Shown: one piece after another, positions 7,790 to 56,972 of the stretch | Position numbering within the stretch: position 1 is the first letter of the stretch | Layout of the letters: every line of letters begins with the position of its first letter | IMG/VR virus record: IMGVR_UViG_3300037189_014399 | Span: 32,001 to 96,000 of that record | Strand: one strand, 5' to 3' | Length of the DNA: 64,000 nt | Origin: a virus | The notes under the pieces: generated by a model | The model's database searches: none | The model's input: the letters and a program-made list of their open reading frames with translations, nothing else | What the model was told of the DNA's origin: nothing | Position numbers and translations under genes: made by a program

Positions 7790-8057
7790 GGTTTGGCCGA
7801 TCTACTGGTGTAGGTGCGAGAGCATACGTTCCACAGATAGCACACTCCATCTGTAGAAGGTATGAGGAGATCTCATAGTCAGCAAATGAAACTTTAAGGT
7901 TCCACAAGTTGCTTTCACACTTAGGACATTCATGGCATATAACATCTTCATACTCCATGGTGCCTGTGTAGTCAGGTTTGATTTCTCTAACTGACTTTGC
8001 GACTTGCTCTCCTTCTGATCCGCTTTCGGTCATTGTGATCCGTACCTCCCCACACAC
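7782..8057 (-). CDS. hypothetical Zn-ribbon protein
   Basis: CPKC...CAICG; true start uncertain. Confidence 0.6.
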   Translation of the reverse strand: MCGEVRITMTESGSEGEQVAKSVREIKPDYTGTMEYEDVICHECPKCESNLWNLKVSFADYEISSYLLQMECAICGTYALAPTPVDRPNLV

Positions 8058-8256
8058 CTAATAGACTTGAGTCAGACAAAGCATACTCTAAACATTCAAA
8101 CTTAATTGAACACCCCATGCATACAGCCTTTGCTGCCTGCACGGTTGCCAAGTACTTAGGGTCATCGTCTTCTGGAAAGAAGAGATCTGGATCTGCATCT
8201 AAGCATGCTTGATCTCCATTAAAAGGAGAAGTTGCCTGTATCGTAAGGATTTCCAT
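7987..8256 (-). CDS. whiB: WhiB-family Fe-S transcription factor
   Basis: C..D.DLFFP...AKAVCMGC....EC.EYAL....GVWGG; start moved to MEILT at 8256. Confidence 0.93.
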   Translation of the reverse strand: MEILTIQATSPFNGDQACLDADPDLFFPEDDDPKYLATVQAAKAVCMGCSIKFECLEYALSDSSLLGVWGGTDHNDRKRIRRRASRKVS

Positions 8257-27119: not shown

Positions 27120-28682
27120 TTACGCCGTAGCGTTTCCTGTGAGTTGTCCAAGCTTGATAACAATGAATTCGGCTGGGTACTCGAGAGCAACGCCTACTTC
27201 AATGTTAACAATGCCATTTTGAATATCAGCTTCTGAGTTATTAGTTCCATCGCAAATAACATAGAAAGCTTGCTGAGGTGAAGTTCCACGAAGACCGCCT
27301 TGCTGCCAGTATCCGCGTAGGAATGTATTGATGCCGGTACGAATACGTGACCACAAGATTGAGTCGTTGTTCTCAAAGAGAGCAAACTGACTGCGGTTAT
27401 CGAGTTCTGTCTTCAAGTACATCATTGAACGACGAACGTTGATGTAACGGTTTGAAGATGTATTGTTAAGTGTACGAGCACCCATAAGTACAATGCCTGC
27501 GCCAGGAACCTGACGGATTGCATTGATAGGTTCTGTGCCGGTGTTTAGTGTGTCTAAGTCTGTATTTGAAAGCTGAGTCTGTGTTGACACTGCTAATGCG
27601 ACACGGTTTCCAAAACCTGCTGGAGCCTTGAATACACCACGTGATGTATCTGTTGCCAAGAACTGACCAGCTGCAATAGCACCTGGGGCCTGTAGGCGTG
27701 TTGCTCCACGAGCAGCCTTTGTTGTATCTGGGATATTAACCCAAGGATAGTAGATTGCTGCTACTTCTCCATGGTTGTTTCCAGAGAAAGGTGAGGTTGA
27801 TTTTAGATCTGAAGCGTACTGTTTAGCATCTGAGACGGTTAATCCAGCAGGAACATCGCAGATTGCAAATGCATTGTCACGGCTAGCGCAGTAATCAACC
27901 ATGTCAGCTTGAAGCTGCATAGACAATGTGCGATCGGCTGAGCTTCCTGCAGTGTTGTAAACATAAGCAGCATTAGGAACGTTAAACACAAGTGGGTTCT
28001 TTACTGGATCAAACAATGTATATGCAGATGAGTAATTAGAACGTGTTGGTGTGCTTCCATCTAGGCCGCCAGTAAGAGCGTGAGGAACACCATCTGCCGT
28101 TGGGCGGTTATCTGGGGCAACAGAGGCTGAATTTTGATCAGTCAATGTAATGTAAGATGAAGATGCATTTACATATGAAATTGCATAACGTGGGTCTGTT
28201 TTTACCATGCTTAGATCAGCAAACTGTTCTACAAGAACGGTGTTTCCTGAAAGTGACTGGTATACATAAAGTGCAAAACGATTAGCAGCACCAGAGTCAA
28301 TAACTTGAACTGCAAAGTTATTACCCCAAGCTCCTGCGTTATTTGCCTTTACTAAAAGTGTAGCCAGTGCTGATTGTGAACGGTCTGTCAATACAACAGA
28401 TGCTTGTGCGGCGTTTGAACCGACTACACGCTTGATGTAGGCCTGGTTACCACCGTTAGCAAAAAAGTTATATACAGCCCAGGTCATTGGATAGGCGTCA
28501 TTGACATCGCCAAAGGTATCGACGAAGTTTCTCCAAGAACGTACTAGAACAGGTAACGCTGTTGAACCCATCGCTGCTGGGCCGACAAATGCGCCTACTG
28601 CTGATCCGTTGTCAGACAACTGAATCGTCTGAGCAACTGGTACCTCTTGTACATAGACACCAGGTCTACTAAATGTAGCCAT
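27120..28682 (-). CDS. contractile tail sheath protein
   Basis: RPGVYVQE, FFANGG..AY, YYPW, RGVFKAPAG, GARTL, YINVRR, FENN, PAEFIVI. Confidence 0.97.
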   Translation of the reverse strand: MATFSRPGVYVQEVPVAQTIQLSDNGSAVGAFVGPAAMGSTALPVLVRSWRNFVDTFGDVNDAYPMTWAVYNFFANGGNQAYIKRVVGSNAAQASVVLTDRSQSALATLLVKANNAGAWGNNFAVQVIDSGAANRFALYVYQSLSGNTVLVEQFADLSMVKTDPRYAISYVNASSSYITLTDQNSASVAPDNRPTADGVPHALTGGLDGSTPTRSNYSSAYTLFDPVKNPLVFNVPNAAYVYNTAGSSADRTLSMQLQADMVDYCASRDNAFAICDVPAGLTVSDAKQYASDLKSTSPFSGNNHGEVAAIYYPWVNIPDTTKAARGATRLQAPGAIAAGQFLATDTSRGVFKAPAGFGNRVALAVSTQTQLSNTDLDTLNTGTEPINAIRQVPGAGIVLMGARTLNNTSSNRYINVRRSMMYLKTELDNRSQFALFENNDSILWSRIRTGINTFLRGYWQQGGLRGTSPQQAFYVICDGTNNSEADIQNGIVNIEVGVALEYPAEFIVIKLGQLTGNATA

Positions 28683-30368: not shown

Positions 30369-30574
30369 TATTTTTTACCTTTCTTATGGGGGTTCTTCTT
30401 ATGCCATTCTTTAGTAGCTTTGACGCCTTGCTTTACTGTCTTAGCTCCGGCCTTCTCAGTAAGATTAATCTTATCCCACTTTGGGTCGTTCTTACCGGCG
30501 TGATCAACTATCACATCGCCTTTTTTATTCTTCTTGACCTCGTGGACCTTGCCACTAACTTTTATTTTTGCCAT
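30368..30574 (-). CDS. 68-aa Lys-rich protein
   Basis: ORF track; TAATG-coupled on both sides. Confidence 0.75.
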   Translation of the reverse strand: MAKIKVSGKVHEVKKNKKGDVIVDHAGKNDPKWDKINLTEKAGAKTVKQGVKATKEWHKKNPHKKGKK

Positions 30575-31902
30575 TATTGAGCCAAGTAACTTCCCGATAA
30601 GTTAAAGGTTGTAGAGGTAGCAAAGTTACCAAGAAGGTTTTTAGTCAATGGGTCAAGTACTAGCTTGTTTCCAGGACCACCTGCGCTCTGCCCGTAGAGG
30701 GTAATAGTTGTAGAGCCAGCGGTTGTTGTGCCCACAATTGGGTAGATGGTTCCACCGATATTGAGAGTGCCTGAGAGGCTTGATGGGCCATAAGCTGCAA
30801 CTGGCAGTGTGAGGGTATAGGCACCTGTTCCAAAGTTAGAGACGTTGGTGCAAGCAACTGCAATCTGGAATTGGATAATCTTGCCAGTTCTTGCGTAGTA
30901 GCTAGTAGTAGGTGTGCCACTAAAAATAAGACCAGTACCCGCCCATGTAGACGTGTAAGAGGTATTAGCTGGTGAGACGTAAGCTGTGGTCTGGCTAGTA
31001 GAGTCGTTATAGTTAACTGTAGTAACAGCTAGAGTAGGCAACTGAGCCTGAGCAATTCCGTCAATATTAAAAACACCGTTGTTAATGGTAATGCCGGCAT
31101 TACTACCTAATGATTGATCTGTAATATATATGGTTCCGGGCCCGACGTGTATAGACTTCCAACGAAGAGCATCTGAACCTAAGTTGTAGGTATTATCTAG
31201 GGCAGGAATTACATCCGTAGAAATATTATTAAGGCTGGCTGCTTGAGCAAAGACAATGTTGTCCGTGCCAATCTTAATGCCGTAATCAACCATAGTTCCT
31301 GTCAAACTCTCAAAGAACGTTTTGTTTCCATTAAGAGTTCCATAAAGAACAAGTACTTGATCGCCTTGAGATACTTGACCTTGAACACTATTATCATAAT
31401 CAGTAGCACGGGTAAGAATAGGTGTTAGACCAGCAACCATACGGGTTGCCACATAGATACCATTTTGTTTAGCATCTACTTGGTCTTTAATAAGAACACG
31501 GTCATTTGGAGCAATAGTGCGACTATCAAGTCCAATAACCCCCGGTGTAGTCGATGTAAAGTTTGCACCAACACCGGTTCCACCATCAGCGCCTGCGCTA
31601 CCTGCGTGGTAAGTCCAAACACCGCTAAGAGGTGCAGTAGTGGCAGCAACAACCGCAGCGTGAATATTGGTTGTGCCTGCAGGACCTGTAGGTCCTGTTG
31701 CTCCTACTGCTCCCGTGGATCCAGTGGCACCAGCTGGTCCAGTTGGGCCCACAGCTCCTGTGGATCCAGTTGGGCCAGTTGCTCCCGTTGCTCCTGCACT
31801 TCCTGCAGCACCTGTAGGTCCAGTCGTTCCCGTGTCACCCTTTGCTCCAACCGGTCCTTGTGGACCAACTCCTCCGCTATTTGAATAATGAATGTTTGCC
31901 AT
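30574..31902 (-). CDS. collagen-like fibre protein
   Basis: N-terminal Gly-X-Y run, DRVLIKDQ....QNGIY...LTRATDYD module, beta-rich C-terminal head. Confidence 0.8.
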
Positions 31903-32180
31903 TATCGATTAACCTTTAGAACTGCTACGTAACCTGCTCCACTTGAAGATAACGCATAAACTTCATCTGTTGTGTAAAGGTTATCAATTGTAAGCGCTCC
32001 ACCGGCAACGATTGAGCAACCGTAGGATGTAGAAGTTAATCCAGCCCCACCAACATATACTGTTGTTGACCCAAGATTTTGTATTTGAATGGTGCAGCTT
32101 AATCCAGATTCAGCTCCAGCTTCTGTAACCATTACAGGGGTAGTGTCATTTACTGCTATACGTGCATGTGATAGTGGCAT
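31902..32180 (-). CDS. small beta-rich virion protein
   Basis: IQNLG...VYVGG motif; coupled to the collagen gene. Confidence 0.55.
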
Positions 32181-32767: not shown

Positions 32768-33610
32768 TTATCTACCCTGACCTGTCAGGCCATGCAAGAT
32801 CTCTGATCTAACTATGTCTTTGATTCCCAAAGCATTTTGATATGGGAACCTATTTCTAGCTATCTTCTTTGGTGTCTCTATTAGGGCGTCTGAGTACTCG
32901 GCTAGTACCTCTACTCCGTACTCCTTGTACAGGGTTAAGATCGTATCTAGATCAGTATCAATACCAGAGCATACGTCGTAAGTAAGATTTGCTAGTCCAT
33001 CTAGGACTATGGATAAAGCAAGCACATTTATGTTAGCCACATCCATAACGTGAGAGTAATCTCTAGGGAATGTCTTTCTGTTCACTATAAAGGGTTTGCT
33101 GTCCCTTACACAGGATCTAATAACGTCAAATACATTCCCAACCTGGTATTGACTTGGAGGCTCTATTAAACCACCTACGTTAAAGTATCTAAGGATTATG
33201 TGATTAACTTTAGATTCTTTTAAGAGCTGTTCAAAAATAGACTTTGATCTTGAATAGGGATTTTCCCCATAGTAAACCGCAGCACTTGAAGCAAACACCA
33301 TGGGGATATTCAACTGCTCACAGACCCTTAATAGGTTTAGACTAGACACTAGATTATTAAAATAATACTCAGTAGGATTATTCTTTGAGTCAGGTATGCT
33401 TTTAAGTGCAGCCAAATGCAACACCGCCTTGATGTTATTAGTCACTATAAGATTATAGAGATCTTTATAATCTATTAAGTCTGTAGGGTTATTAGAATGG
33501 ATGTCTATAGGTAATGAGTTAGAAAGAAGACTTAAGGTAGCTCTTCCTATATACCCGTCTCCCCCAGTTATAAGAACCCTACTGTTGTTGCTTAAGGACT
33601 TCTGCTCCAT
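32768..33610 (-). CDS. NAD-dependent nucleotide-sugar epimerase (GalE-like)
   Basis: ITGGDGYIG, HLAALK, FASSAAVY, YSRSK (YxxxK), LRYFNV, RDYSHV.D.A. Confidence 0.88.
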   Translation of the reverse strand: MEQKSLSNNSRVLITGGDGYIGRATLSLLSNSLPIDIHSNNPTDLIDYKDLYNLIVTNNIKAVLHLAALKSIPDSKNNPTEYYFNNLVSSLNLLRVCEQLNIPMVFASSAAVYYGENPYSRSKSIFEQLLKESKVNHIILRYFNVGGLIEPPSQYQVGNVFDVIRSCVRDSKPFIVNRKTFPRDYSHVMDVANINVLALSIVLDGLANLTYDVCSGIDTDLDTILTLYKEYGVEVLAEYSDALIETPKKIARNRFPYQNALGIKDIVRSEILHGLTGQGR

Positions 33611-34496
33611 TAGACAGAATCCTTCCGTTTACAAAATCCAACCCACAGTAATCACCATAGTCTTTTAGACTTCGTTGTGTGCCAAGGCGATATTCCCCAG
33701 TCAGGGCTTCTGTTAAAACAAGTTTTATCTCATCTATAGACACTTGGTTTAGAGACGCACACAACTCTGGAAAATCTGGACACACCTGCCTACGTTTATT
33801 GTCCTTATCAGCTTCCCAATAAAGGTGGTACATAAACTGTCTGGTTGGAACCATTAAGGTATACCCCATAGTAAACGCACGAGCAGCCATAAAGATTTCT
33901 TCACCGTCAGCAAAGATAAGTTCATTAGGTTTCATAAACTCACCCTCTACAAATATGGATCCACCAGAGACGCTAAGTGAGGTGTGTAAAAATTCCTTTG
34001 GGGCATAAGATCCTTGCATAGGTGTTCTGAACAACTTAAATCGTTCTGGATCTTTCCAGTAGAACTGAGTAACTACATCCTCAACTTGCCTTACTACCTC
34101 ATTACCACCCTCATACCAGTATAGCTTTGGGTAGTTTGTTATAAGCGGTTTTTCTACACCCTCTGACTTATAAAAGTCCATAAGGTTTATTAAATAACTG
34201 TCCCAGTTCCTATCAAACCTACTATGAGAATCTACCTGTAAATAGTAATCCTCACCAGAATAAAATTGATGGGCTATAGCTCTTCCTTTACCCATACCTA
34301 AATTATCTGGAGCCTTACTGTAAAATACTTTTACATTTGGTAGGTTAGGAACCTCTATTGTGTTTTCTTCAAAGAAGATTGAGTGAACACCAAAGTTAAT
34401 CGTGTTAATTCCAGAAGCTTTTTCTATAGCATCAAAAATTGTCTTACTTAATTCTTGATCATGATAAGAAGTAATCTGTATGAAAATACTTTTCAT
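33579..34496 (-). CDS. GT60/Gnt1-like GlcNAc transferase
   Basis: SIFIQITSY.D.EL..TI.DA...A; G.G.GR.IA..FY.GEDYYLQVDSHSRF...WD; F..GEEI..AARAFT.GY...P.....HLY. Confidence 0.8.
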   Translation of the reverse strand: MKSIFIQITSYHDQELSKTIFDAIEKASGINTINFGVHSIFFEENTIEVPNLPNVKVFYSKAPDNLGMGKGRAIAHQFYSGEDYYLQVDSHSRFDRNWDSYLINLMDFYKSEGVEKPLITNYPKLYWYEGGNEVVRQVEDVVTQFYWKDPERFKLFRTPMQGSYAPKEFLHTSLSVSGGSIFVEGEFMKPNELIFADGEEIFMAARAFTMGYTLMVPTRQFMYHLYWEADKDNKRRQVCPDFPELCASLNQVSIDEIKLVLTEALTGEYRLGTQRSLKDYGDYCGLDFVNGRILSNGAEVLKQQQ

Positions 34497-35467
34497 TAGT
34501 CACTCCATACTGCGTGTGAGCAAGTAGTGCATAGTGTTTTAAATGAATGTTCTATCATCTCTATGCGCCGATTGCTTTCCCAAATCTCCTTTATAGAAGA
34601 GTCGTTTACGTTTCCAAAAACAGTTTCAAAGTCATAGTCATTACAGCAGATAAACACATCACCATTAGCGTTTACATGTAACCAGGTTTTGGTTCTATCT
34701 CCCATGTTAGTACAGCCAACAACCTTTGTTCCTTTTTTATTGTACCTTTCAATTGCTGGCATATTTGTCATTACTTTTGCTTTGTCTAGGTACCCGGCAC
34801 GATCAACTAACCCAATATTTGAAAACACATTAATGGTAGGAAAGATTCTTTTAAAATCTCTAAGGGCATTTGAAAGATCTCCAGTCTCAGGAGATAGATC
34901 TAAGACAGGCATATTTTCTAGGGGTTGCATCCATCCCCCATTTACAGGTAAAGACCTTTCATCAATTCCGTTTACTTGAATTGATAGCATATGGGCAGGA
35001 AGTTGAGACACCGCATAATTTAAATTATCCGTTACCCGGTTATGAATCTTTGGGTTCTTTCCAGTCATCCTTGACCATACCTCTGGATCTGCAGAGGGAA
35101 TATTAAAGTTAATTAGATCGACAACATCCTGATACTCTTTTATAAGATCAGTCTTCTCCGGTGTTAGGGGAATGCCATTTGTTAAAACCATAGTTCTAAG
35201 AGATAGTTCACGAAGTAGGTCCAGCATCCCATGAAAGTCTTTGTATAAAAGAACTTCGTTATAGTGCGCTGTATATACAAACGTAAACTGAGGGGAAACA
35301 AAATCTCCCATTCCCTCTTTAAGCTGGGTAAGGATACTTCTTACTGTCTCTAGTGGCATGTTCTTTCTTCCAACCTCAGGGTTGGGAGAGTATGCCACAG
35401 GACAAAACCAACAACCTGAATTACACAGGCCATTTGGATCTAGTTGAAGTAACTGAATCTGTGACAT
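34496..35467 (-). CDS. radical SAM enzyme with SPASM/twitch domain
   Basis: CNSGCWFC (CX3CX2C), LTNG, C-terminal C...NANGDVFICCND....GNV...IKEIW...CTTC. Start MSQIQ at 35467. Confidence 0.9.
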   Translation of the reverse strand: MSQIQLLQLDPNGLCNSGCWFCPVAYSPNPEVGRKNMPLETVRSILTQLKEGMGDFVSPQFTFVYTAHYNEVLLYKDFHGMLDLLRELSLRTMVLTNGIPLTPEKTDLIKEYQDVVDLINFNIPSADPEVWSRMTGKNPKIHNRVTDNLNYAVSQLPAHMLSIQVNGIDERSLPVNGGWMQPLENMPVLDLSPETGDLSNALRDFKRIFPTINVFSNIGLVDRAGYLDKAKVMTNMPAIERYNKKGTKVVGCTNMGDRTKTWLHVNANGDVFICCNDYDFETVFGNVNDSSIKEIWESNRRIEMIEHSFKTLCTTCSHAVWSD

Positions 35468-35471
35468 TAAG

Positions 35472-36080
35472 TTAATTCCACCACGCAACTACGGCATATC
35501 GAAGTCCTGAGATTACAGGGTGTACGCTATGGTTATAGATGTAGTTAGATGGAAACATAATCATTTGATTAGCTTTTGGTTTAATCTTTAAACCAAATCT
35601 AGGGAATTCAATTTCCCCACCTTCATAGTCTTCATTAAGATAGAAGCTCATAGATACTGTTCTTGGAAAGGCCCTAGAATCATCAAAGTGATTTATAAAG
35701 TGATTGTCTTTTCCATACTTAAGTATCTGCCAACCTTCTGATACGTACCATTGTCCTGCAGCATGACTGTTCTTATAGTGAAGGATGGCTTCATTAAGTT
35801 CCTCATTTAAAAGATCATGAAGAGCAAGCATGGCTCCACCACTTGTGTTTCTAAGCTCTGGATTGGCATCGTATGCCGGCAATGACATTACTTTACAATC
35901 ACGAATGCTCTTTACAGCTTTTGGTGAGTCTTCCTCCTGCCCGCTGCTTTGGTTAGCTTCAGCCCAAGCTAGGTTATTGATCTCTACTAGCCCTTCAAGG
36001 TCTGAAATAAAACCAGCGGGATCAGACATAACATTGGTGTAACTAACAATACCTGGTGCTAGTACTTCTACCTCAAACAT
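35472..36080 (-). CDS. 2OG-Fe(II) oxygenase, prolyl 4-hydroxylase-like
   Basis: QILKY...HF..HFD (HxD), YLNEDYEGGEIEF, IKPK....IMFPS...Y.HSV.PV.SG.RY. Confidence 0.9.
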   Translation of the reverse strand: MFEVEVLAPGIVSYTNVMSDPAGFISDLEGLVEINNLAWAEANQSSGQEEDSPKAVKSIRDCKVMSLPAYDANPELRNTSGGAMLALHDLLNEELNEAILHYKNSHAAGQWYVSEGWQILKYGKDNHFINHFDDSRAFPRTVSMSFYLNEDYEGGEIEFPRFGLKIKPKANQMIMFPSNYIYNHSVHPVISGLRYAVVAWWN

Positions 36081-36312
36081 CTACTTTGCCCCACTTTCCA
36101 ATTGGACATTCTGCTCCTGGAAGAGTTGTTTTAATCTTCATAAAGCATCCGCACTTCTTGCATTGTTTTGTAAGTTTAATAAGTTCTGGACATGCTTGAC
36201 ACATACCCCATCGCTCCTCATACACAGCATCGCTTACTCGTTCCGCTGTTGTAATAAGGTCCCAAGGTCTAGTTTCACCAAGGTTCTTCTTATAATCTTC
36301 CCATCTAGACAC
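36073..36312 (-). CDS. small Cys-rich protein
   Basis: CQAC...CKKCGCFM..K......CPIGKW. Confidence 0.75.
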   Translation of the reverse strand: MSRWEDYKKNLGETRPWDLITTAERVSDAVYEERWGMCQACPELIKLTKQCKKCGCFMKIKTTLPGAECPIGKWGKVDV

Positions 36313-36685
36313 TAGCTATTACCTCCTTGAATTCGCCGTTTACATAGCTCCAACCAGGGACTATAGCTGAAGAGTAACCAGTATCGATAGAAACGTCAAT
36401 TACTGTAGGCTCTGAAGAAAGAATTGCCCACATTTTTTCATCACATTGGATGGTTTCAATCTCTTGTTTATCCTTTATAACATCCACATAAAAAAGAGGA
36501 GGTGTTACAGGAAGTTCCTTGAATCGATCTGCGGTAAGCAAAAGGTTGGCTGCATCTACCTCAAGTGCTAGGACCTCGGCAACCTCATTGCCTACAATAA
36601 AGGCTACAGCTCTTGATGGTATTCCTTGAAGTTTCTTTTCTACTGCGGAATCGCCGGATCGTATATGGTCTTTTAATATAAACAT
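36305..36685 (-). CDS. hypothetical protein (possible fibre assembly factor)
   Basis: Duplicated AxL motif, C-terminal GW.Y..G.F; directly downstream of the 808-aa gene. Confidence 0.55.
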   Translation of the reverse strand: MFILKDHIRSGDSAVEKKLQGIPSRAVAFIVGNEVAEVLALEVDAANLLLTADRFKELPVTPPLFYVDVIKDKQEIETIQCDEKMWAILSSEPTVIDVSIDTGYSSAIVPGWSYVNGEFKEVIASV

Positions 36686-36710: not shown

Positions 36711-39137
36711 TTAGCACGCTCCACCAGAACCATATGAGCCCTGACAACAGCTTGTACAGGTACATGGGTTAGATGGGTTTGCATAGTCTGCAGAGGTACA
36801 TCTATAGTTGCCTGAGGATGCAGGAGTAGAGGTTGGTGCCGGAGTGCTTGTTGCTGGAGCATAATCTCCCTGGCAGATATTAGGGCAAGAGCCAGGAGTA
36901 ATACACCAAGTACCGTTTCCATAAGTTCCGCAAGCCCCACCGTAGCTAACGCATGTTGAGCATGAGGTGGCTGTAGGGGCAGGAGTAGATGTTGCAGTAG
37001 GAGTAGGAGTTGGATTACATGCTGGGCAGTTAGTGTAATTATAATCCGCACAACCTGAAGCTGTTCTACAAATAATATAAGTATTACCGCAAGCATCTCC
37101 GCAAGACATTGTTTCGTAAGCTGGGTGTGATCCCCATCCTACGCAAGCACTGCAATTTGTGGTAGAAGTAGGTGTAGGAGTAGAAGTAGAAGTCGCTGTG
37201 GGTGTGGGGGTAGGTGTAGGCGTTGATGATAAACAATACTGGAACTGTCCAGAAGTACATACATATGTTAACCCTAAGTCACTACATGTATTAGTTGTTG
37301 ATCGTGTAGAGGTGTAAGATCTTCCATCATTTGGAGGACATGCAGAAGTAGGAGTAGGTGTAGAAGTAGTTGTAGTAGTTGGTGTAGGTGTAGGTGTAGA
37401 TTGTGGTCCGCAGTTTGCAACAGGACCTGAAGTATTAAACCCGAATACATAACCAGAGCCGCCACAGTCAGCGTTAGCTACTTGTCGTCCAGTTGTATTG
37501 TAGCTGTTATAAGCCCCGTCACTATATTGACCTGGGTTACCACAGCAGTAATAGTAAGTAGTTGTAGGAGCAGGAGTAGATGTAGCTGTAGGAGTAGGAG
37601 TAGGTGTAGAAGTAGTTGTAGAAGTAGCCGTTGGTGTAGGTGTTGGAGTAGAGCCTGAACAGTTCTTACTCTGACATGATGGGTATCCAGATGTACTGTA
37701 TGAAAGCGATGAGTAGCTACCGCAGTTTCCTACAAACGTTGCTACCATCTCGTTATAGGTGTTTCCTGAGAACTGGGCGCAGTATCCATCGCAACAAGCA
37801 GTTCCGTAATAGGTTGTTCCACCAGAAGTTGGAGTAGGTGTAGCAGTAGCAGTAGCCGTTGGAGTAGGAGTAGGGGTAGAAGTAGTACATGTGTACGGGT
37901 TACTGTATCCCTGAGTACACGTAGTTGAGTAACCAGTTCCTGATCCAGATTGGTTTGCAGAATATGGACCAGATAATGAACAACCAACAGGTGTTGACTG
38001 AACATAAGTAATGCAGTAGTACCCATAGGTTGAAGTAGCTGTAGGAGTAGGAGTAGGTGTAGGAGTTACCGCTCCTGGACAGTTACCTGGGTAACCTGAA
38101 GTTAATACGTTATAGCCTAATGAAGGACAGTAGGTGTAAGCCGAAGTAGCTGTAGGAGTAGGAGTAGGGGTAGGCGTTGAAGTACAAGTACCGTTAACTT
38201 GATACTGTGCGTAATAACTTGGACTATATGTACCGCCACTAAATGTAGTTTGACCACATACCCAAGAGCTAATAGATGTTGATCCTGAAATACTGCTGTA
38301 AGCTTCTGCGCAGTATGCACTTGCGCTGCTGTAACCAAACAAAGTAACATCAATGCCGTCGTATCCATTTGACCCTGAAGACGTACAATACCCATAGGAT
38401 ACGTATATAGATCCTGTTGTAGGTGTGGGTGTGGGGGTAGGTGTTGGCGTAGATGTGCCTGATGATGCGGTGGTAAAAGATGTAGGTGCGCTACCGCATG
38501 CTGTTCCATTTAAGTAGCCAATAAGCGTTGCAGTGTAATTAGTTGCTGCACTTAATCCTGAAACAAGGATAGGCAAAGAAGAGCCAGTAGCAACGATACT
38601 TCCACCAATACTTACAGCAACTGAAGTATAAGCCTGAGTATTTCCAGTTATATAGGCAGCGTTTGTCGTCCAAGCCTGGCCTGCTCCGGCACCGTAAGCA
38701 GTTGCAGAGCTAATACATGAACCACCAGTTGTAGGTGTGGGGGTAGGAGTAGATGTAGCAGTTGGAGTAGGTGTAGGAGTAGGGGTAACTGTCGGAGCAA
38801 TATAATTATAATAAGTAAGATCAACTACCTGTGCAGATAGGTAGTATCCAGAGGCTACGCTCTGAGTAATGATCTGTTGATTATTTCCTGAAGTTGCTCC
38901 GGATGTAACTGCTGTAGAAGTCCCTACAGTATTTCCTGAAGAGGTAATTGCTGTAGTTGCAGCAGATAAAGTAGATCCGACTACGTTAGGTACTGTAACC
39001 GGAGGAACAAGAACTTGTCTCCATACAGTGTTATTTTTTGCATAGCCGTAGGTAACGCTACGCCAAGTACCATTTACTTTGACGTATGCCCTGTAGAGTG
39101 TTCTCCAGGTACCATTGATGCGTACATTACCGGCCAT
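36711..39137 (-). CDS. modular Cys-rich, (Thr-Pro)n-linked fibre/adhesin with PASTA-like domain
   Basis: NGTWR repeat N-terminus; VTVPNVVG...IITQS PASTA-like segment; FN3-like SGLSAATNYT; 10 TP linkers; 46 Cys. Confidence 0.75.
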   Translation of the reverse strand: MAGNVRINGTWRTLYRAYVKVNGTWRSVTYGYAKNNTVWRQVLVPPVTVPNVVGSTLSAATTAITSSGNTVGTSTAVTSGATSGNNQQIITQSVASGYYLSAQVVDLTYYNYIAPTVTPTPTPTPTATSTPTPTPTTGGSCISSATAYGAGAGQAWTTNAAYITGNTQAYTSVAVSIGGSIVATGSSLPILVSGLSAATNYTATLIGYLNGTACGSAPTSFTTASSGTSTPTPTPTPTPTTGSIYVSYGYCTSSGSNGYDGIDVTLFGYSSASAYCAEAYSSISGSTSISSWVCGQTTFSGGTYSPSYYAQYQVNGTCTSTPTPTPTPTATSAYTYCPSLGYNVLTSGYPGNCPGAVTPTPTPTPTATSTYGYYCITYVQSTPVGCSLSGPYSANQSGSGTGYSTTCTQGYSNPYTCTTSTPTPTPTATATATPTPTSGGTTYYGTACCDGYCAQFSGNTYNEMVATFVGNCGSYSSLSYSTSGYPSCQSKNCSGSTPTPTPTATSTTTSTPTPTPTATSTPAPTTTYYYCCGNPGQYSDGAYNSYNTTGRQVANADCGGSGYVFGFNTSGPVANCGPQSTPTPTPTTTTTSTPTPTSACPPNDGRSYTSTRSTTNTCSDLGLTYVCTSGQFQYCLSSTPTPTPTPTATSTSTPTPTSTTNCSACVGWGSHPAYETMSCGDACGNTYIICRTASGCADYNYTNCPACNPTPTPTATSTPAPTATSCSTCVSYGGACGTYGNGTWCITPGSCPNICQGDYAPATSTPAPTSTPASSGNYRCTSADYANPSNPCTCTSCCQGSYGSGGAC

Positions 39138-39965: not shown

Positions 39966-40307
39966 CTATGAAAGTTCTGAACCGAATGCTTGGAAAGCTA
40001 AACCTGTACTTGATGAATAAACTCCAACAACGTCATTTGTTGCAAGGGTAAGACCTACGGTATAGGTAGTAGTTGTATTTGCTGGAATGGTTGTTCCTGA
40101 TGCAAAGTACTGTTTTGTTGACAGAGTAGCTCCACCCTGACGAATAGCAATGCTGTAAGTAGCAGCTGAAGAGGTTGTGTTGCAAACTGAGATTGTGGAA
40201 AGTACAGCGCCTGTCTTTGGAGAAGCTACAGTGTAGAGGGCCACCTCTGTAGAGGCTGATCCACTAGTAGGGTTAGCCTGCCCCAAGATCTTATAAGCTG
40301 TTGCCAT
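39966..40307 (-). CDS. small virion structural protein
   Basis: MATAYKILGQ, ISVCN, IPANTT, AFGSE; resembles 46887..47189. Confidence 0.6.
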   Translation of the reverse strand: MATAYKILGQANPTSGSASTEVALYTVASPKTGAVLSTISVCNTTSSAATYSIAIRQGGATLSTKQYFASGTTIPANTTTTYTVGLTLATNDVVGVYSSSTGLAFQAFGSELS

Positions 40308-41385
40308 GTTTCTCCCCTAAATAAAAAGCTAGATTTGATTTTAGACGTTGATCGTTTGGACTTAATTGTAACGCTTCAGACCCATATTTAATGGCTTTCT
40401 CCAAATGATCTGCTTTTTCTTCTCTAGTTTCTACAGACTTATACAAGTTAAAATGAGAAATTGCAGCATAGTCGTGGGGGAGACTGCCCCAGGCAAACTC
40501 CTCACATAGATACTCCAAAGGCTTTTCTGTAATCTTTAGGGCCATTTCCGCTACCTGGTAGCAGGCAGTGCTCCATCCGGTCTCATAGTAATAACCAGCA
40601 AGCTCTACTAAAGCCTCTCTTCTATCGGGGGCTTCGTCGTACGCCTTGCGTAACCACTCATGACGCTCTTCACCTTCAGATAGCTTTGCTATATATCTCA
40701 TTGAGGCTGCACGTTCTGGTTTCCATAGTGCTCCTGGCAGAGATAGATGACGTAGGAACTCAGCCTTAGCTTCCTCAGCTTTGCCATAGAAGTAAAGTTC
40801 TCTGGCATAGTAGAAGGCGTTGCGATCATCGTTTGGATCTTCAACTACAGATTGAGCTAACAGGGGAAGGTATTGCCCACGGGACTTAGAGTTATCTGGG
40901 TAGTGGTGGATCTCAAGATCACACCATTCCTGGGTCTCAGGTATGCGGTCAGATACAAGGACTTCGTGTACCGGATGCTTCCACCTATAGCCCTTACGAG
41001 CATGGATCTTATCTCCGCCGTATTGAAGGCCTGGAGTGCCGTCTTCATTCCAAGACCAAGTGTACTTGTATCGAACTCTAGTTGCCTCGGTGGATTCCAA
41101 TTGGGTACGCCAACCAGGTAAGAAAACCTCATCCATATCTAAGGCTACACACATGTCAATGTCTGCTGGCAAAGCAGCCAGAGATGCATTACGTGCGTCA
41201 TCAAAACGCCAAGGATTGATTGTAATAGAGATTGTATTTATGCCAAGCTTATTGGCAAGCTCTACGGTTCCATCTGTGGAGCCAGTATCGGCTATAAGGA
41301 GGTAGTCTGCCTCTTTAGCAGATTCAAACCATCGCTCTACAAACTGTGATTCGTTTTTAGCAATGGTATATACGGCTATTTTCAT
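40291..41385 (-). CDS. GT2 glycosyltransferase with TPR repeats
   Basis: IAKNE, DTGSTDGT, FDDARN, LDMDE (DxD), PVHE; helical TPR-like C-half. Confidence 0.9.
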   Translation of the reverse strand: MKIAVYTIAKNESQFVERWFESAKEADYLLIADTGSTDGTVELANKLGINTISITINPWRFDDARNASLAALPADIDMCVALDMDEVFLPGWRTQLESTEATRVRYKYTWSWNEDGTPGLQYGGDKIHARKGYRWKHPVHEVLVSDRIPETQEWCDLEIHHYPDNSKSRGQYLPLLAQSVVEDPNDDRNAFYYARELYFYGKAEEAKAEFLRHLSLPGALWKPERAASMRYIAKLSEGEERHEWLRKAYDEAPDRREALVELAGYYYETGWSTACYQVAEMALKITEKPLEYLCEEFAWGSLPHDYAAISHFNLYKSVETREEKADHLEKAIKYGSEALQLSPNDQRLKSNLAFYLGEKHGNSL

Positions 41386-42984: not shown

Positions 42985-45900
42985 TTAGAATGTGGTCTTA
43001 TCGAACCAACGGATGATTGCTACACCGTCAGATCCGTTTCCACCGTTTGAGTTGTAACCAAGGTATGTTAGACCTGAGATATCAACGTCAACAATGTCAC
43101 CAGAATCTAGGTAGTCAAACTCCCATGTTACATCGAAGAGGTAAGCATTTGCTGGAGCTGGCTGTGTTGTCCAACCACCTGACTGTGTGTAAACGATTGC
43201 GTTTGAAGCGTTTACAGAACCAAGGTAGTTAACTGTGTTGAGTGCTGTGAACACGATGTCGTAGATAGGACGGTCTTCACGAATGATTACGTTGTTCTGA
43301 TCCTTCCAACGGATTGTTGGACGAGCACGCTTTGTAGTTCCAGCAAATGCTGGGCTAGAGATTGAGCTTGTTGGAGATGATGTCAAACGAGCTGCAAGTG
43401 CAGGAAGCGTAATGATTGTACGTGGCAAGATCTGGAATGTCTGAGACAGTGTTACGATCTTGACGTTACCGTCATCTTGTGCTGTTACACGTAGGCCGTT
43501 TGTACCAAAGATACCAGCAGATGCAGAAGCCTGAATATCTGTTGCGTTGTATAGAGGCATCCACTTGTAGAATTCAGCAGATGTTGCTTCGTATGCAACT
43601 GCAGCGTTAGCAGGGAAGTGCATGATTGGTAGATCAGGGTTGTTACCAAAGTTGGTAGAACCACCGCCACCACCGGAACCTGTGTTAGGGATTGCATCGA
43701 TACCACGTGCGAAGTAGTTACCTGAAGATGAACCCCATGCAGTCTGGAGTGTGCCCTGTGAAAGATCAACGATGACGTTACCGCCACCCTTACCTCCACC
43801 AGCAGTTCCACGACCTGGAGCCATGTATGGGTTGAACTGGTAACCAGCTGCTGAAGTACCAACACCACCAGATGTCCATGTTACCCAACCTGCACCACCG
43901 CCACCTGCACCAAGTGCAAGTCCAAGTGATGATCCGCTGTTTAGACCTGAGACAACTGTTCCCTGACCACCATCACCGGCGATGCCTGGGATAGCTGAAC
44001 GGCCGTTAGAAGATGTGTTCATGATTGCGTAACCACCAGCGTTACCACGACCTGGGAATGCAGGCTGTGAGAATGCTGCGGTTGTCTGCCAACCAGCAAC
44101 AGGAATTGGGTTAGTTGTAGATGTAACTGCCTGTAGGTAGCTCTGTGCGTTCTGACCAGGAGTCAAAGAACCAGCACCACCACCAGCGACTGCAAGAGCA
44201 CCAGCTGTAGAGTTGTATGCAGCGTGACCACCGTTGTGTGCACCCTGGATACCAAACATCCAGTAAAGGTTGTTGGTGTTGTAGGTACCACCACCGCCAC
44301 CGCCTTCTGCGGCAACTGTCCAGCTTGAGATCAACTGTGATGCACCTGTCTGGCCTGACCAGAAGTAGGTTACGTTATCTGCCTTCTTAGGGAAGGTAGC
44401 AGCTGATGCAAGTTCAAGCTGTGGAGCGATCAAGTTGTACTGTACCTGAGTACCTGTACCGACTGCGCCACGGTATACAGAGAAACCAACACGAGCGTAT
44501 ACAGCGTTTGCTGTAGCCACTGCACCGGCACCTGTACCAACTGGTGTTGAGGCAAGAGGAGCCACTGCACCGTTAACACCAATACGTGCACCGTAGTTTG
44601 TAGCTGGCATAACAGCAGCAACTGCTGAGTAACCATTGAAACCAAGGAACATGTTTGGACCAACAGAGCGTGAGATTGGCTGGTAGTCAGCATCAAGCCA
44701 CTCAATGAAGCCTGTGATTGGCCAGTACTGGTTAGCAGTACCTGAACCAAAGGCGTACATAGAAGCTGAGTATGTCTGACCGGCAGTTACACGAACTGGG
44801 CGGTGTGCAACTTCGAGGTTACCGTTTGAGTTGGTTGATGATGAAAGAACCAAAGAGGTACCGAAGTTATAGACAGGAGGCTGCCATGTTGTAGGTGTTG
44901 AGCCTAGTTCAAGCTGAAGGTTATCAACAAGCAAGCTTGAGATGCTTGGCTGCTGAACGATCAATGTTGGGTACATGAATAGCGGAGATGTACCGTATGC
45001 ATATGTACCTGTTGCCTGAGCTGCGGCAAGACCTGGCATTGTGAATGTTGCTGATACACGAACCCAACGGTTTGTAAGAACCTGCTGACCAGATGGTGTA
45101 CCGAATGTGATCGATACAGGACCAGTGATAGCCTGAGTTGAGTTGGCGCTCAATGTAACTGTTGTACCGTTAATCGCTGTAATGTAGTTTGTAGTAGCCA
45201 AACCAGTTGGAGCAGATGTGATGTACATACCTGTAGTCAAACCAGTTGCGCTCGCTACTGTGAACTGGTTTACACCAGATCCGTAGCTACCAGTAATGGT
45301 TGTCGCAGTTGATGCACCGTAACCTGAGATAGGTGTAGGTGTTGCCTGACGTACGAAGAAGCCGTTAGCTGTACCACCAGCAGCATCGATTGATGATGTT
45401 GAAAGTGTTACAGGTGTACCACCAAGGTAGTTCTGGTTAACAGCAGCACCGTAAGTTGAGCCAGCAGAACGAAGCTGGAACAAGAATGGTGTAGAACCTG
45501 AGTTGATTACTGTGTTAGTCCATACATAAGCTGACAATGTGTATGTCTGGCCTGGGATGAATGGAACACCAGCATAACCGGTCTGTGACTGTGTTGCAGA
45601 ACCTACAGCTGTGGCGGTCTGAGTTGAGAAGATAACCCATGACGGAGTACCAGATGTAGTTGATGTACCAGTTGAAAGTGAAAGTGAGTTAAGACCCACA
45701 GTACCTGTGTATGAAGCAGTTACTGACTGAGCAGCAATTGTTGCGTTCAACGCCTGGTTCAAGTAAACAGTTGTTCCTGAGATGCTTGTGATAAATGTAC
45801 CGGTTGGGAAACCTGTACCAATCAAGAACATGTTAGGGATCAAACCTGTTGTGCTTGCAAGGGTTGCAAAGAAGTTACCTGAAGTACCGGTAGCAGTAGT

Positions 45901-46863
45901 TGTAAGAACACCACCAACCATTTCAGGAAGCTTAGTTGCAGAACCAACGTTTGCAATTGAGAAGGTTGAGAACGCAGTACCCTGCTGGCTTAGGTAAGCA
46001 AGTGATGAAATAAGTGTTAATGACTCCAACTGTGAAGTAAGAGGCTGTAACAAGTTATTAGAGTAGTTACCAGCTGGCTGAGGTGAGTGGTAGCTGTTAT
46101 TGGTGAAGGCGTTAGTTCCTGTGAAAGGATCCTGACCTGTCAAGTTGTAGTTGTGATACATAACCTGACCCTGTGTGATAACAGAGTTAGCTGAATCAAA
46201 ACGAACAACACCGTTAACTGCACCAGATGTAGCTGCAGATAGGGTAATCGTGTTACCTGAAATGTTTGTAATGTAGGTGTTAGATGCAATGTTAGATGTA
46301 GATGAAGAAACACCTGGGTAAGCTGTAGAAATGTATGAACCTGCAACTAGTGTCATACCTACAACAAGACCGTTAGCGTTTGGATAAACAGTCATGTAGG
46401 TAGATGTTGTAGCTGCGGTTACAACCTTGTATACAACTTCAGGATCCCAACCTAGAACGTTGAGATCAAAATCTGGGTTTGTTAAGTAGTTCCAGACTGT
46501 TGTAGAACCAAATGTGGTAGTACCACCATTTGTTCCTGGAAGAGTAGATGTGTAATCGTTAGACGCGATAAGTGCACCAAGACCACCCTGACCACCCACA
46601 CCAATGTTTACCTGGTATGAAGTTCCTGGGGTTACGTCAATGTTCTTAACGATGACAGCGCCACCAGCGCCACCGCCGCCTGCTACGTTATCTGCGCCGC
46701 CGCCACCGCCACCGCCGCCGCCAACGAGGACGACTTGAGCAGAGTTAACGCCAGCAGGAGCAGTCCAAGTACTACTAGAAGTAAAGACCTGCTCCTTGAT
46801 TGTTACACGACCCGAATTGTCGTTCGGGAAGACGATTAAGTCTTTATATGCGGAAATTGCCAT
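42985..46863 (-). CDS. glycine-rich fibre protein (1292 aa)
   Basis: FTSS.TW.AP.GV...V.LVGGGGGG start; NTGSGGGG and GGNGSDGV.IIRW end; internal beta modules. Confidence 0.8.
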   Translation of the reverse strand: MAISAYKDLIVFPNDNSGRVTIKEQVFTSSSTWTAPAGVNSAQVVLVGGGGGGGGGADNVAGGGGAGGAVIVKNIDVTPGTSYQVNIGVGGQGGLGALIASNDYTSTLPGTNGGTTTFGSTTVWNYLTNPDFDLNVLGWDPEVVYKVVTAATTSTYMTVYPNANGLVVGMTLVAGSYISTAYPGVSSSTSNIASNTYITNISGNTITLSAATSGAVNGVVRFDSANSVITQGQVMYHNYNLTGQDPFTGTNAFTNNSYHSPQPAGNYSNNLLQPLTSQLESLTLISSLAYLSQQGTAFSTFSIANVGSATKLPEMVGGVLTTTATGTSGNFFATLASTTGLIPNMFLIGTGFPTGTFITSISGTTVYLNQALNATIAAQSVTASYTGTVGLNSLSLSTGTSTTSGTPSWVIFSTQTATAVGSATQSQTGYAGVPFIPGQTYTLSAYVWTNTVINSGSTPFLFQLRSAGSTYGAAVNQNYLGGTPVTLSTSSIDAAGGTANGFFVRQATPTPISGYGASTATTITGSYGSGVNQFTVASATGLTTGMYITSAPTGLATTNYITAINGTTVTLSANSTQAITGPVSITFGTPSGQQVLTNRWVRVSATFTMPGLAAAQATGTYAYGTSPLFMYPTLIVQQPSISSLLVDNLQLELGSTPTTWQPPVYNFGTSLVLSSSTNSNGNLEVAHRPVRVTAGQTYSASMYAFGSGTANQYWPITGFIEWLDADYQPISRSVGPNMFLGFNGYSAVAAVMPATNYGARIGVNGAVAPLASTPVGTGAGAVATANAVYARVGFSVYRGAVGTGTQVQYNLIAPQLELASAATFPKKADNVTYFWSGQTGASQLISSWTVAAEGGGGGGTYNTNNLYWMFGIQGAHNGGHAAYNSTAGALAVAGGGAGSLTPGQNAQSYLQAVTSTTNPIPVAGWQTTAAFSQPAFPGRGNAGGYAIMNTSSNGRSAIPGIAGDGGQGTVVSGLNSGSSLGLALGAGGGGAGWVTWTSGGVGTSAAGYQFNPYMAPGRGTAGGGKGGGNVIVDLSQGTLQTAWGSSSGNYFARGIDAIPNTGSGGGGGSTNFGNNPDLPIMHFPANAAVAYEATSAEFYKWMPLYNATDIQASASAGIFGTNGLRVTAQDDGNVKIVTLSQTFQILPRTIITLPALAARLTSSPTSSISSPAFAGTTKRARPTIRWKDQNNVIIREDRPIYDIVFTALNTVNYLGSVNASNAIVYTQSGGWTTQPAPANAYLFDVTWEFDYLDSGDIVDVDISGLTYLGYNSNGGNGSDGVAIIRWFDKTTF

Positions 46864-50942: not shown

Positions 50943-51485
50943 CTAGATTAAAGTGATCGGTGCGATCACCGAGGTAGTAGTTGTTACATTTACATTGTTA
51001 ATGTTCTTAGGGAAGTAAAATCCTGTACCTAAGAATGCATCAGCAATGACTTTTTGATTAAGATTAGTATCTCCAGACGTACCTGCAGGGCCTGTAGCTC
51101 CCCTTGATCCACCGCGTATTAGTATAGCCCAATATGTAGGGGTTAGGTCTGGATCTTTGTTCGTGTTATCTTGAAGAGCAATATACGTGTTATTGTCATC
51201 GTAGGGGATTACTGTTCCCTTTGGATAAAAAGTAGTTGAATTCCAAGTTTGCACTACTTGAGTAATACCAGTACCGGCAGGACCTGCCGCACCAGCTACA
51301 CCAGCAGGACCTGTAGGACCTTGTACACCAGATGAATAAGAAAGTTGAGTCCAGGTAGATGTTCCATTACCTAACTTAAACTTTCCTGTATCTAGCTCAA
51401 GACCCAATTCACCTTCTGCAAGGATTGGGTTTGCAGAGGTCCATTGAGCTGCTGATCCACGTCTAAATTGAACTTGAACGGCCAT
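50943..51485 (-). CDS. short fibre: Mtd/hyaluronidase-like N-domain, collagen, CBM5/12-like motif
   Basis: QFRRG.AAQWTSANPILAEGE.G.E.DTGKFK.GNG; short Gly-X-Y; WN...Y..G......Y.A.......P.....W. Start MAVQV at 51485. Confidence 0.75.
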   Translation of the reverse strand: MAVQVQFRRGSAAQWTSANPILAEGELGLELDTGKFKLGNGTSTWTQLSYSSGVQGPTGPAGVAGAAGPAGTGITQVVQTWNSTTFYPKGTVIPYDDNNTYIALQDNTNKDPDLTPTYWAILIRGGSRGATGPAGTSGDTNLNQKVIADAFLGTGFYFPKNINNVNVTTTTSVIAPITLI

Positions 51486-55895: not shown

Positions 55896-56972
55896 TTAGT
55901 TGGTTTCTGCAATAATTACAGACTGGTCAGTAATTAGACCAAGACCGTAGATTGCGTACCAAGCAAGTGCGTGCTCACGACCGAAGTCCAAGATACCGCC
56001 GTCACGAAGTTCCACAGGAAGTGAAATAGCGTGACCGAATGCGTTATCACCGATAAAGATTGCTGAGTAGCGATCTGAACCGCCGTTACCTGTCTTGGTT
56101 GTTGGAGATGTGTATCCACCACCAGTTGGGTAAACGATTGATCCTGGAGCAACAGCTGAGTCAGTTGTGTAGTTTGTACCAGCTCCACCTGGGACCTTCT
56201 GGATCTGTGTTGTCTCAATGAATACTACGTCGTACAAACGACCGATTTCACCAAGCATGAAGTTTCCTGGAGCAGCGTACTTAGTGACTTCAATAAATTC
56301 TGGATTGTCACGGAGCTTACGGCTCTGGTGTGGGTGTACGAATGCAACGTATGTCTCGCCAAGACGTGGGATGTTCTTGGTTGCGAGGGTCTCGACTGCG
56401 TCCTTAACAGTTGCAGTTGTGAGAGCGAAGTTGCCGGTCATTGAAGCTCGTGATGAGCCCTTTGTGCCGTAGTCGTACCAGTTATTGACTGCGTTAGCAG
56501 ATGTGCGGTCATAACCGTAGATAACTGAAGATGCGGCCATGAGTGTGTCACGAGCCTGTCCATCTAGGTATAGGGCCATGTTGCGGCCAAGTAGACGAGA
56601 AGCAGAAGCCATCACGTCATCGAATGATGCGTTGAGGAGCAATTCAGAAACGGCAATGCCATATCCGTGCTCTGCAACGGTGATTGAGAACTGCTGTGCT
56701 GTCAAAGCGTTAGTTGTCATACGGACACCTTCAACAAGTGCTGAAGCGAATCCGAGGTTGTTATAACGCATGAAGTTGATCTGGAGACCAGGTGCGACAT
56801 TCAATTCAGTCTTCTTAACAGCGAACTGTTCGAAGCGTAGGATTGGCATGGACTGGAACAAGATTTCCTTGGACCAGATGACCTGGATCGCCTGTGTAAG
56901 CTGGCTATTAGCGCCAGAATACGCTGTTGGGGCAGCGGCTAAATTGCCGGTACCAGTTACGGCTGATGCCAT
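55896..56972 (-). CDS. major capsid protein (N4-gp56-like)
   Basis: WSKEIL....P.LRFEQFA, L.EG, EHG, HPHQ..LR, GEIG....V.FIET, DFGR...LAWY; follows scaffold. Confidence 0.92.
   Translation of the reverse strand: MASAVTGTGNLAAAPTAYSGANSQLTQAIQVIWSKEILFQSMPILRFEQFAVKKTELNVAPGLQINFMRYNNLGFASALVEGVRMTTNALTAQQFSITVAEHGYGIAVSELLLNASFDDVMASASRLLGRNMALYLDGQARDTLMAASSVIYGYDRTSANAVNNWYDYGTKGSSRASMTGNFALTTATVKDAVETLATKNIPRLGETYVAFVHPHQSRKLRDNPEFIEVTKYAAPGNFMLGEIGRLYDVVFIETTQIQKVPGGAGTNYTTDSAVAPGSIVYPTGGGYTSPTTKTGNGGSDRYSAIFIGDNAFGHAISLPVELRDGGILDFGREHALAWYAIYGLGLITDQSVIIAETN

Follow-up and report, generated by a model that had tools for sequence, protein, structure and literature searches.

Even-numbered cysteine modules on Thr-Pro linkers in a candidate surface fibre of an actinobacterial myovirus

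How could a phage protein with 46 cysteines and no evident export signal come to hold them in even-numbered packets, one packet to each of ten modules? The question is raised by a single gene in positions 32,001 to 96,000 of the IMG/VR virus record IMGVR_UViG_3300037189_014399; this whole stretch of 64,000 nucleotides is referred to below as the window, and coordinates are those of the window unless the genome is named. The gene (36711..39137, minus strand) encodes a mosaic protein of 808 aa, here called P0001, with 46 Cys and 14 stretches of Thr-Pro or Ala-Pro (TP/AP) linker. With a probability of roughly two in three, we read P0001 as a beads-on-a-string, disulfide-closed surface appendage, a fibre or whisker, of an actinobacterial myovirus. 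The parity of its cysteines and the way in which its modules vary and recur among other viruses carry this reading.

Even cysteine numbers in P0001 and its relatives

The open reading frame 36711..39137 stands apart from the rest of the genome in composition. Cys makes up 5.7% of its product against a whole-genome mean of 0.94%, so that about one-seventh of all Cys in the genome's set of open reading frames is found in P0001, and the large structural proteins of the same phage have no Cys in 1292, 1021 and 511 aa and a single one in 924 aa. Runs of TP/AP dipeptides set off ten modules, M1 to M10, behind an N-terminal part without Cys (aa 1-117); the modules have 2, 4, 2, 4, 6, 4, 4, 8, 6 and 6 Cys. 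These are exactly the ten even counts, 46 in total, that an earlier note on this DNA had listed. The 500 residues of the ten modules were put through 200,000 shuffles that preserved the 46 Cys, and every module came out even in 0.18% of them (probability 0.0018, about 1 in 540); the figure of about 1 in 1000 given earlier was therefore of the right order. The modules also, as had been claimed, do not repeat one another: the strongest BLASTP match between any two of them reaches E 3.6e-4 in a ten-sequence database without composition correction. The nine modules that follow M1, an FN3-like domain, are 24-77 aa long, with an abundance of Tyr, Gly, Ser and Asn and hardly any charge; P0001 as a whole has a single His and 15 Asp plus Glu. 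Cysteines lie near both ends of the beads, within 0-9 residues of one end and 0-4 of the other, the exception being M1, whose last Cys is 13 residues from the end.

The same parity is found across the mosaic family. An exhaustive HMMER search returned 80 proteins, all metagenomic. The parity test covered 50 proteins other than P0001 with at least 8 Cys and at least two linkers, linkers being assigned by one fixed rule, and 148 of their 150 unique linker-flanked Cys modules are even (88 of 90 after near-duplicates were collapsed). The even modules comprise 22 with 2 Cys, 70 with 4, 40 with 6, 13 with 8, two with 12 and one with 28, and 62 of the 148 (42%) hold either 2 or 6. Both odd modules come from P0071, a protein of a different type, and the 34 viral loci taken alone yield 105 even modules and no odd one. 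Frequent odd counts in homologous modules, the observation that the earlier note had named as fatal to its claim, were thus not encountered (2 of 150). Odd totals of whole proteins could be traced to a C-terminal Hint/intein-like domain with one Cys, to poly-Pro linkers missed by the rule and to truncated open reading frames.

Clustering resolved about 67 bead families, among which seven have members of differing Cys content. The differences are invariably of two Cys (0/2 in one family, 4/6 in five, 6/8 in one), and not one of the seven has an odd member. Among the variable families are the FN3-like one (0 to 2), the M10 and M5 types (4 to 6 in each) and the M9 type (6 to 8); the PASTA-like domain, which has no Cys in P0001, carries a conserved Cys pair in the proteins of loci L004 and L010. 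The paired gain and loss of Cys that the earlier note proposed to look for in homologues is accordingly what the seven families display, in steps of two only. A bias toward even Cys numbers is an established indicator of disulfide formation, which has been applied to exported proteins, including those of Actinobacteria (PMC2823432). Pairing of Cys with Cys is the favoured explanation here because it alone predicts both even counts and steps of two.

The domain map of P0001, whose features all lie on the minus strand, begins with an N-terminal anchor of three NGTWR-type beta-hairpins without Cys (aa 1-43, 39009..39137), modelled by AF2 as six strands with a predicted local distance difference test score (pLDDT) of 82-90. 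The same anchor is found in the Cys-free PASTA-repeat proteins P0008, P0009, P0013 and P0020, and in L004 and L010. It is followed by a Cys-free PASTA-like domain (aa 47-110, 38808..38999; Pfam PF03793, E 6.3e-5), for which P0001 itself scores 23.3 bits against a cut-off of 23.2 and homologues reach 55 bits. The AF2 model of aa 47-110 has one helix and three strands at pLDDT 94-98, and its best Foldseek match is the PASTA region of PrkC (3py9, E 1.5e-3, probability 1.00). In cells, PASTA is a peptidoglycan-binding fold typical of Gram-positive wall-sensing proteins.

M1 (aa 138-227, 38457..38726) has 2 Cys, C141 and C214, and is assigned as FN3-like from AF2, Foldseek and the alignment of homologues. 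Its model is a seven-strand sandwich over aa 145-222 (pLDDT 82-94) that matches CbhA and chitinase A1 at their FN3 modules, with target TM-scores of 0.52-0.68 at weak E values of 6e-3 to 1.7e-2; M1 has no Pfam match of its own, and the relatives P0002 and L005 carry PF00041. Nine unique aligned homologues have no Cys, and its cluster holds four members with none and one with two. M1 appears to be an ordinary FN3-like domain that acquired one Cys pair, not a knottin-scale bead.

The remaining beads are a varied set. M2 (aa 242-318, 38184..38414, 4 Cys) gave no homologue and no usable model (pLDDT about 40). M3 (aa 334-357, 38067..38138) is a 2-Cys loop with the motif YCPSLGY..GYPGNCPG, and all 18 unique members of its family have 2 Cys. 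M4 (aa 371-417, 37887..38027) is an orphan module with 4 Cys; M5 (aa 439-495, 37653..37823) has 6, the rest of its family (11 members) having 4; M6 (aa 528-579, 37401..37556) has 4 and is of the YYYCC... type. M7 (aa 600-636, 37230..37340), of the CPPNDG... type, has 4 Cys as do all its homologues, and M8 (aa 661-709, 37011..37157) has 8, likewise shared by all homologues, with a CxxC at both ends and a pLDDT of 79-90. M9 (aa 726-759, 36861..36962; CGxYGNG..C.TP..C.N.C type; pLDDT about 75) has 6 Cys and belongs to a family of 28, of which 24 members have 6 and four have 8. M10 (aa 776-808, 36714..36812) closes the protein with 6 Cys, against 4 in the rest of its family (10 members).

AF2 drew on alignments of 29 rows for the N-terminal region and 14 rows for aa 599-808. 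M8 and M9 are modelled as confident small beta structures, M7 and M10 only weakly, and the linkers as disordered (pLDDT about 40). A comparison of aa 599-808 with PDB, with BFVD by Foldseek and VIA-wide gave no fold match (best Z 2.6; Foldseek E 4.7 in PDB and 0.6 in BFVD), and the ESM Atlas returned no usable match, with a pLDDT of 0.48 for its own model; the missing structural match is no evidence of a new fold. None of the beads matched a family in Pfam, PHROG or NCBIfam. By size and Cys count, only M5, M9 and M10 are of knottin scale, with 6 Cys in 57, 34 and 33 aa, and the other modules have 2, 4 or 8; most modules are not knottin-like by Cys count. The picture of independently folded, disulfide-bonded mini-domains of knottin- or lectin-like scale that the earlier note had drawn is thus supported in its first half, by the parity of 148 of 150, the steps of two and the confident folds of M1, M8 and M9, and needs qualifying in the second, M1 being FN3-like and above knottin scale and no knottin or lectin fold being matched.

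Bead exchange and the co-inherited cassette

Single beads of P0001 recur in other TP- or PT-linked arrays in a different order, among them P0002, P0003, P0007, P0011, P0028, P0035 and P0041; M1, M3, M7, M8, M9 and M10 are the beads found in other orders and combinations. The arrays sit behind at least four types of N-terminus: the NGTWR anchor of P0001, L004 and L010; the P0028 type, which matches minor-tail, tail-fibre and virion-structural families of PHROG at E 1e-10 to 1e-14; another tail-fibre type, in P0002 (PHROG E 1.5e-7); and a short N-terminus followed by PASTA, as in P0003. The shuffled library of modules that the earlier note had suspected, and proposed to check in homologues, is thus real by sequence comparison, the order of the beads changing from array to array and the N-terminus being of four types or more. 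A close view of the process is offered by L004, which is syntenic with the P0001 locus, four upstream genes being 38-67% identical. Its mosaic protein likewise has 46 Cys, and what the two proteins have in common is confined to the anchor, M3 and an M9 region of 66% identity. The DNA encoding the linkers of P0001 forms a repeat family of 21 copies, a plausible substrate for bead exchange.

The beads are found in viruses. A degenerate DNA pattern for M3 occurs in 13 viral contigs and one for M9 in 22, and neither occurs in any of 185,579 cellular genomes, one for each of 185,579 prokaryote species. Among 50,697 phage records, tblastn with P0001 and P0003 found no match, nor did megablast with 20 kb.

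Some of the related mosaics differ from P0001 in build. Those of L029 (7070-10498, plus strand), L031, L036, L005 (11906-13558, minus strand), P0012 and P0025 have a Hint/intein-like domain at the end, with a single Cys at its start and, ahead of it, PPFFPPSFFAPP-type aromatic-proline repeats. This end domain reaches only E 0.0071 with Pfam Intein_splicing, and a PDZ-like stretch gives E 1.3e-5; it could be an autoprocessing or self-attaching end of the fibre. In L002, L008, L011 and L012, PPYFVPPFFPP aromatic-proline blocks stand between the TP linkers, and the 2-Cys M3 loop, in four to six copies, is the only type of Cys bead.

Downstream of the mosaic gene lies a cassette of genes on the same strand. 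Directly adjacent is a gene for a 126-aa protein (36305..36685), with a homologue in 5 of the 34 loci, and after it a gene for a 79-aa protein with 6 Cys (36073..36312) of the family DUF6171 (Pfam PF19668, E 3.1e-7). The next gene (35472..36080) encodes a 2-oxoglutarate (2OG)-Fe(II) oxygenase of the P4H-type family PF13640 (Pfam E 1.8e-15), and a glycosyltransferase of 305 aa follows at 33579..34496 (PHROG 24687, E 1.4e-25). A DUF6171 gene comes after the mosaic gene in 32 of the 34 loci, the two exceptions being contig ends; the oxygenase is found downstream in 19 loci, and for the 305-aa glycosyltransferase the count is 14. The residues R34, C38, C41, C51, C69, P70 and W74 of DUF6171, four Cys among them, are invariant, and the oxygenase keeps its HxD...H motif and Arg (H131, D133, H184, R194). 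The co-inheritance of a glycosyltransferase and a 2OG oxygenase downstream of the mosaic gene is what a glycosylated, mucin-like appendage leads one to expect, and the oxygenase likely modifies the TP linkers.

A search of the literature found no paper that names DUF6171 and no description of this fibre family. In L002, L008, L011 and L012, the DUF6171-oxygenase pair is tandemly duplicated, and the fibres there have only 12-14 Cys. For this reason DUF6171 is seen to track the oxygenase and not the Cys load; the idea that its copy number follows the Cys load was dropped, loci with only 12 Cys having two to three copies, which match the duplicated oxygenase genes. A predicted complex of the two proteins scored 0.44 against 0.00 for the best of three controls, with at least 86% contact agreement between runs and a partner pLDDT of at least 75. 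Of 80 solved complexes, 58 attained the score mark applied, as did 2 of 110 mismatched pairs, and scores from that mark up to 0.60 came from only 7 of the 80 solved complexes and from both of the passing mismatches; a DUF6171-oxygenase complex is thus weakly suggested by the models. In L005 and L010 the whole cassette lies beyond the terminase gene, which indicates that it moves as a unit.

A proposed disulfide-closed appendage and its rivals

The source record is a complete viral genome of 104,858 bp with direct terminal repeats. Genes for a sheath, a baseplate wedge and collagen-like fibres mark the phage, which is uncultivated, as a myovirus; a look through sequencing runs turned up no RNA data set for it. 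Its host is, as judged from gene content, an actinobacterium, because the genome has three WhiB-family genes (C1 4904-5107, 30522-30746 and 40020-40211, the last being window 8020-8211) and a major capsid protein 71-73% identical to those of the Streptomyces phages BRock, LuckySocke and their relatives. With a phage GC content of 44.5%, it is probably a low-GC actinobacterium. A distance of 27 kb separates the capsid gene (55896-56972) from the sheath gene (27120-28682), compared with about 5.5 kb in BRock, the closest cultured relative. The extra DNA between them (window 27120-56972) holds at least four fibre-like genes, sugar enzymes and the P0001 gene, which thereby sits in a structural block with the fibre-like genes 51485-54259, 42985-46863 and 30574-31902.

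Two further genes of the region may be recorded. A GT2 glycosyltransferase fused to TPR repeats (40291-41385, minus strand) lies upstream of the fibre gene and is 67% identical in L004; when considered as a SunS S-glycosyltransferase it scored 15.9 bits against a cut-off of 350, a generic GT2 similarity. A 235-aa protein of unassigned function is encoded on the plus strand from 63859 to the end of the window and on to genome position 96566. It is 46-53% identical to the product of a gene that adjoins the cassette and in most cases runs on the opposite strand; such a gene is present in 11 of the first 13 loci.

What could be the architecture and life history of such a protein? In the reading that we favour, the Cys-free triple beta-hairpin at the N-terminus would fasten P0001 to the particle, and the PASTA-like domain, the FN3-like domain and nine further small beads would follow on disordered Thr-Pro linkers. 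Each bead would be closed by one to four intramodule disulfides of its own, with Cys near the ends acting like a staple. The beads would be multivalent, low-affinity binders of host envelope polymers, and the repetitive DNA of the linkers would permit them to be swapped between phages. The linkers themselves would be hydroxylated and glycosylated by the downstream cassette of DUF6171, 2OG oxygenase and glycosyltransferase. The link to the virion is suggested by the N-terminal domains of the homologues P0028 and P0002, which match minor-tail, tail-fibre and virion-structural families of PHROG at E 1e-7 to 1e-14.

The protein would be made in the cytoplasm. A signal peptide was sought in P0001 and none was found, the first 30 aa having a mean Kyte-Doolittle hydropathy of -0.41; nor is there a membrane segment, the sole 19-aa window that reaches 1.6 falling within the FN3-like domain, nor an LPxTG or sortase motif. 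The complete genome gave no match to profiles of thioredoxin, glutaredoxin, DsbA or VKOR, all of which detected their controls; the Erv1 profile also found nothing, yet its control was likewise silent. The absence of a signal peptide and the lack of an explained route to oxidation, both of which the earlier note had pointed out, are thus confirmed, with no phage thiol-redox enzyme found. Because no recognisable thiol oxidase or thiol-redox enzyme was found, oxidation after lysis and release is the most likely, and simplest, possibility: the disulfides would form non-enzymatically once lysis brings the particle into oxygenated water.

A broader reading, which we consider doubtful, would see in these arrays a virus-only repertoire of some 60 or more tiny disulfide-closed domain families that are recombined via linker repeats into a combinatorial library for host recognition and depend on the co-inherited DUF6171. 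There, DUF6171 may recruit the linker hydroxylase or aid the folding or oxidation of the beads. If true, this would amount to a phage counterpart of eukaryotic secretory-pathway maturation, acting on a cytoplasmically made protein.

Several observations weigh against the appendage reading. Because modules of one family descend from a common ancestor, the 148 even counts cannot be taken as separate events, and the number of families, about 67, is the fairer one. The anchor of P0001 matched no family in PHROG (at E 1e-3) or Pfam, so that no known virion-attachment N-terminus is found in P0001 itself, only homologues with other N-termini having such matches, and attachment to the virion is argued from context. 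For M2, M4, M6, M7 and M10 the models are poor or homologues are scarce. Neither a knottin nor a known carbohydrate-binding or lectin fold was matched by any module, and binding is suggested by composition and the PASTA domain alone. The cassette of the relatives L005 and L010 has its place outside the block of tail genes. Finally, M8 has CxxC at both ends and M9 begins with one, and these could bind metal.

This last point leads to the possibility that some modules, mainly M8 and M9 with their CxxC, are zinc-binding Cys4 mini-domains, parity being a reflection of metal sites. Such sites would fold in the reducing cytoplasm, and the oxidation puzzle would be gone; the neighbouring DUF6171, too, has its four invariant Cys in a zinc-ribbon-like pattern. 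However, Cys4 sites cannot account for modules with 2 or 6 Cys, which make up 62 of the 148 even ones, the seven variable families change by two and not by four, and the single His and 15 Asp plus Glu of P0001 leave little with which to complete metal sites. In the M9 homologues P0035 and P0087, moreover, the first CxxC has become Cx4C, which a zinc knuckle would hardly tolerate. The modules do not follow a Cys4 pattern, and although a single site within M8 is possible, metal binding is an unlikely cause of the parity. Far less likely still is thioether stapling. A radical-SAM/SPASM gene (34496-35488, minus strand) lies four genes downstream of P0001, and SPASM enzymes often make Cys thioethers in peptides, so the cysteines might be substrates for sactionine- or ranthionine-like cross-links. 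A thioether joins Cys to a non-Cys residue, however, and predicts no parity, and the radical-SAM gene is found in none of the 34 related loci with homologous Cys modules, which largely refutes the idea. The enzyme stays under every NCBIfam maturase cut-off (52.9 bits at best against 250), its sole PDB relative is the sugar-modifying BtrN (E 3.4e-8) and it has no assignable subfamily; its gene has the oxygenase on one side and a glycosyltransferase and an epimerase on the other. Its absence from the 34 loci, the maturase cut-offs it fails to reach and BtrN as the sole PDB relative make it more likely a part of a sugar pathway, and the adjacent gene is not part of the bead-fibre system.

Parity alone is also compatible with bonds between chains, since ring cross-links in a trimer likewise need two Cys per chain, and in the phage Milano extensive inter-subunit disulfides are known from a tailed particle. 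Paired Cys might on that model lock an oligomeric fibre or tie the fibre to the particle. The beads, however, are held apart by long disordered linkers and have Cys at both of their ends, they pass singly between proteins with their Cys number kept, and the other large structural proteins of the phage are almost Cys-free and provide no disulfide partners, all of which renders inter-chain bonding improbable as the general explanation. The remaining alternative concerns location. P0001 might not belong to the virion and might be a soluble factor, released at lysis or acting inside the infected cell or at its wall, that binds wall material or polysaccharide. Its N-terminus has no structural-family match, the cassette adjoins early or packaging genes in L005 and L010, and PASTA domains are present in non-structural wall-binding proteins too. 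Against this, homologous bead arrays are carried on tail-fibre and minor-tail N-termini of PHROG, the mosaic gene both here and in L004 comes after three small fibre-like genes within the structural block, and no enzymatic or catalytic domain is seen in P0001. We give a role outside the particle little credence, and place P0001 by preference on the virion surface.

Relation to known systems and significance

Does P0001 belong to a system that is already known? The nearest precedent for many structural disulfides in a tailed phage virion assembled in the cytoplasm is Agrobacterium phage Milano, with its extensive virion disulfide network (PMC10811340). The bonds of Milano are inter-subunit ones in the sheath and baseplate and block contraction, whereas the Cys considered here lie in small autonomous beads that belong to a single accessory protein, P0001; in the present phage, unlike Milano, the proteins of sheath and baseplate have almost no Cys. 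PT linkers, FN3-like modules and aromatic-rich beads of 30-50 aa with 4-8 Cys recall secreted glycoside hydrolases and cellulosomal proteins, which have FN3 spacers and small carbohydrate-binding modules (CBMs, for example CBM1 and hevein/CBM18) closed by disulfides. Those proteins, however, are exported by Sec and oxidised outside the cell, and P0001 has no Pfam CBM, no fold match and no catalytic domain. The PASTA fold at aa 47-110 recalls the PASTA sensors (PknB/PrkC, PBP2x) but is fused in P0001 to a phage anchor and a bead array, with no kinase, transpeptidase or membrane segment.

Glycosylation of mycobacteriophage virions offers a further parallel. As Freeman et al. are said to have described in 2023 in Cell Host Microbe, glycosyltransferase genes there reportedly adjoin structural genes, and their products presumably act on an extension, rich in Ser and Thr, that a virion protein carries. 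Both cases thus involve actinobacterial phages with glycosyltransferases of their own near structural genes; the mycobacteriophage substrates, however, are C-termini of capsid and tail-tube proteins without Cys beads, and glycosylation in the present case is predicted from genes alone. Neither a 2OG oxygenase nor a DUF6171 partner is known to have been described for those substrates. P0001 resembles PT-linked carbohydrate-binding arrays, mycobacteriophage appendages and Milano but is a member of none of these; we class it as a putative modular phage adhesin fibre, whose cysteine-bead, Thr/Pro-string type appears to be unpublished.

Which hosts a phage can infect is decided chiefly by its receptor-binding parts, and those of uncultivated aquatic actinophages are uncharted. 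The data define a large, unannotated, virus-restricted family of 50 proteins, about 67 bead families and 34 contigs, and provide a signature by which further members may be sought in metagenomes: an even Cys number per bead, TP linkers and a DUF6171 gene downstream. As no PDB fold was matched, the beads are candidate new minimal disulfide scaffolds. Two questions become testable with this family, namely how a chain from the reducing cytoplasm would acquire up to 23 disulfides and how adhesins may diversify by domain swaps.

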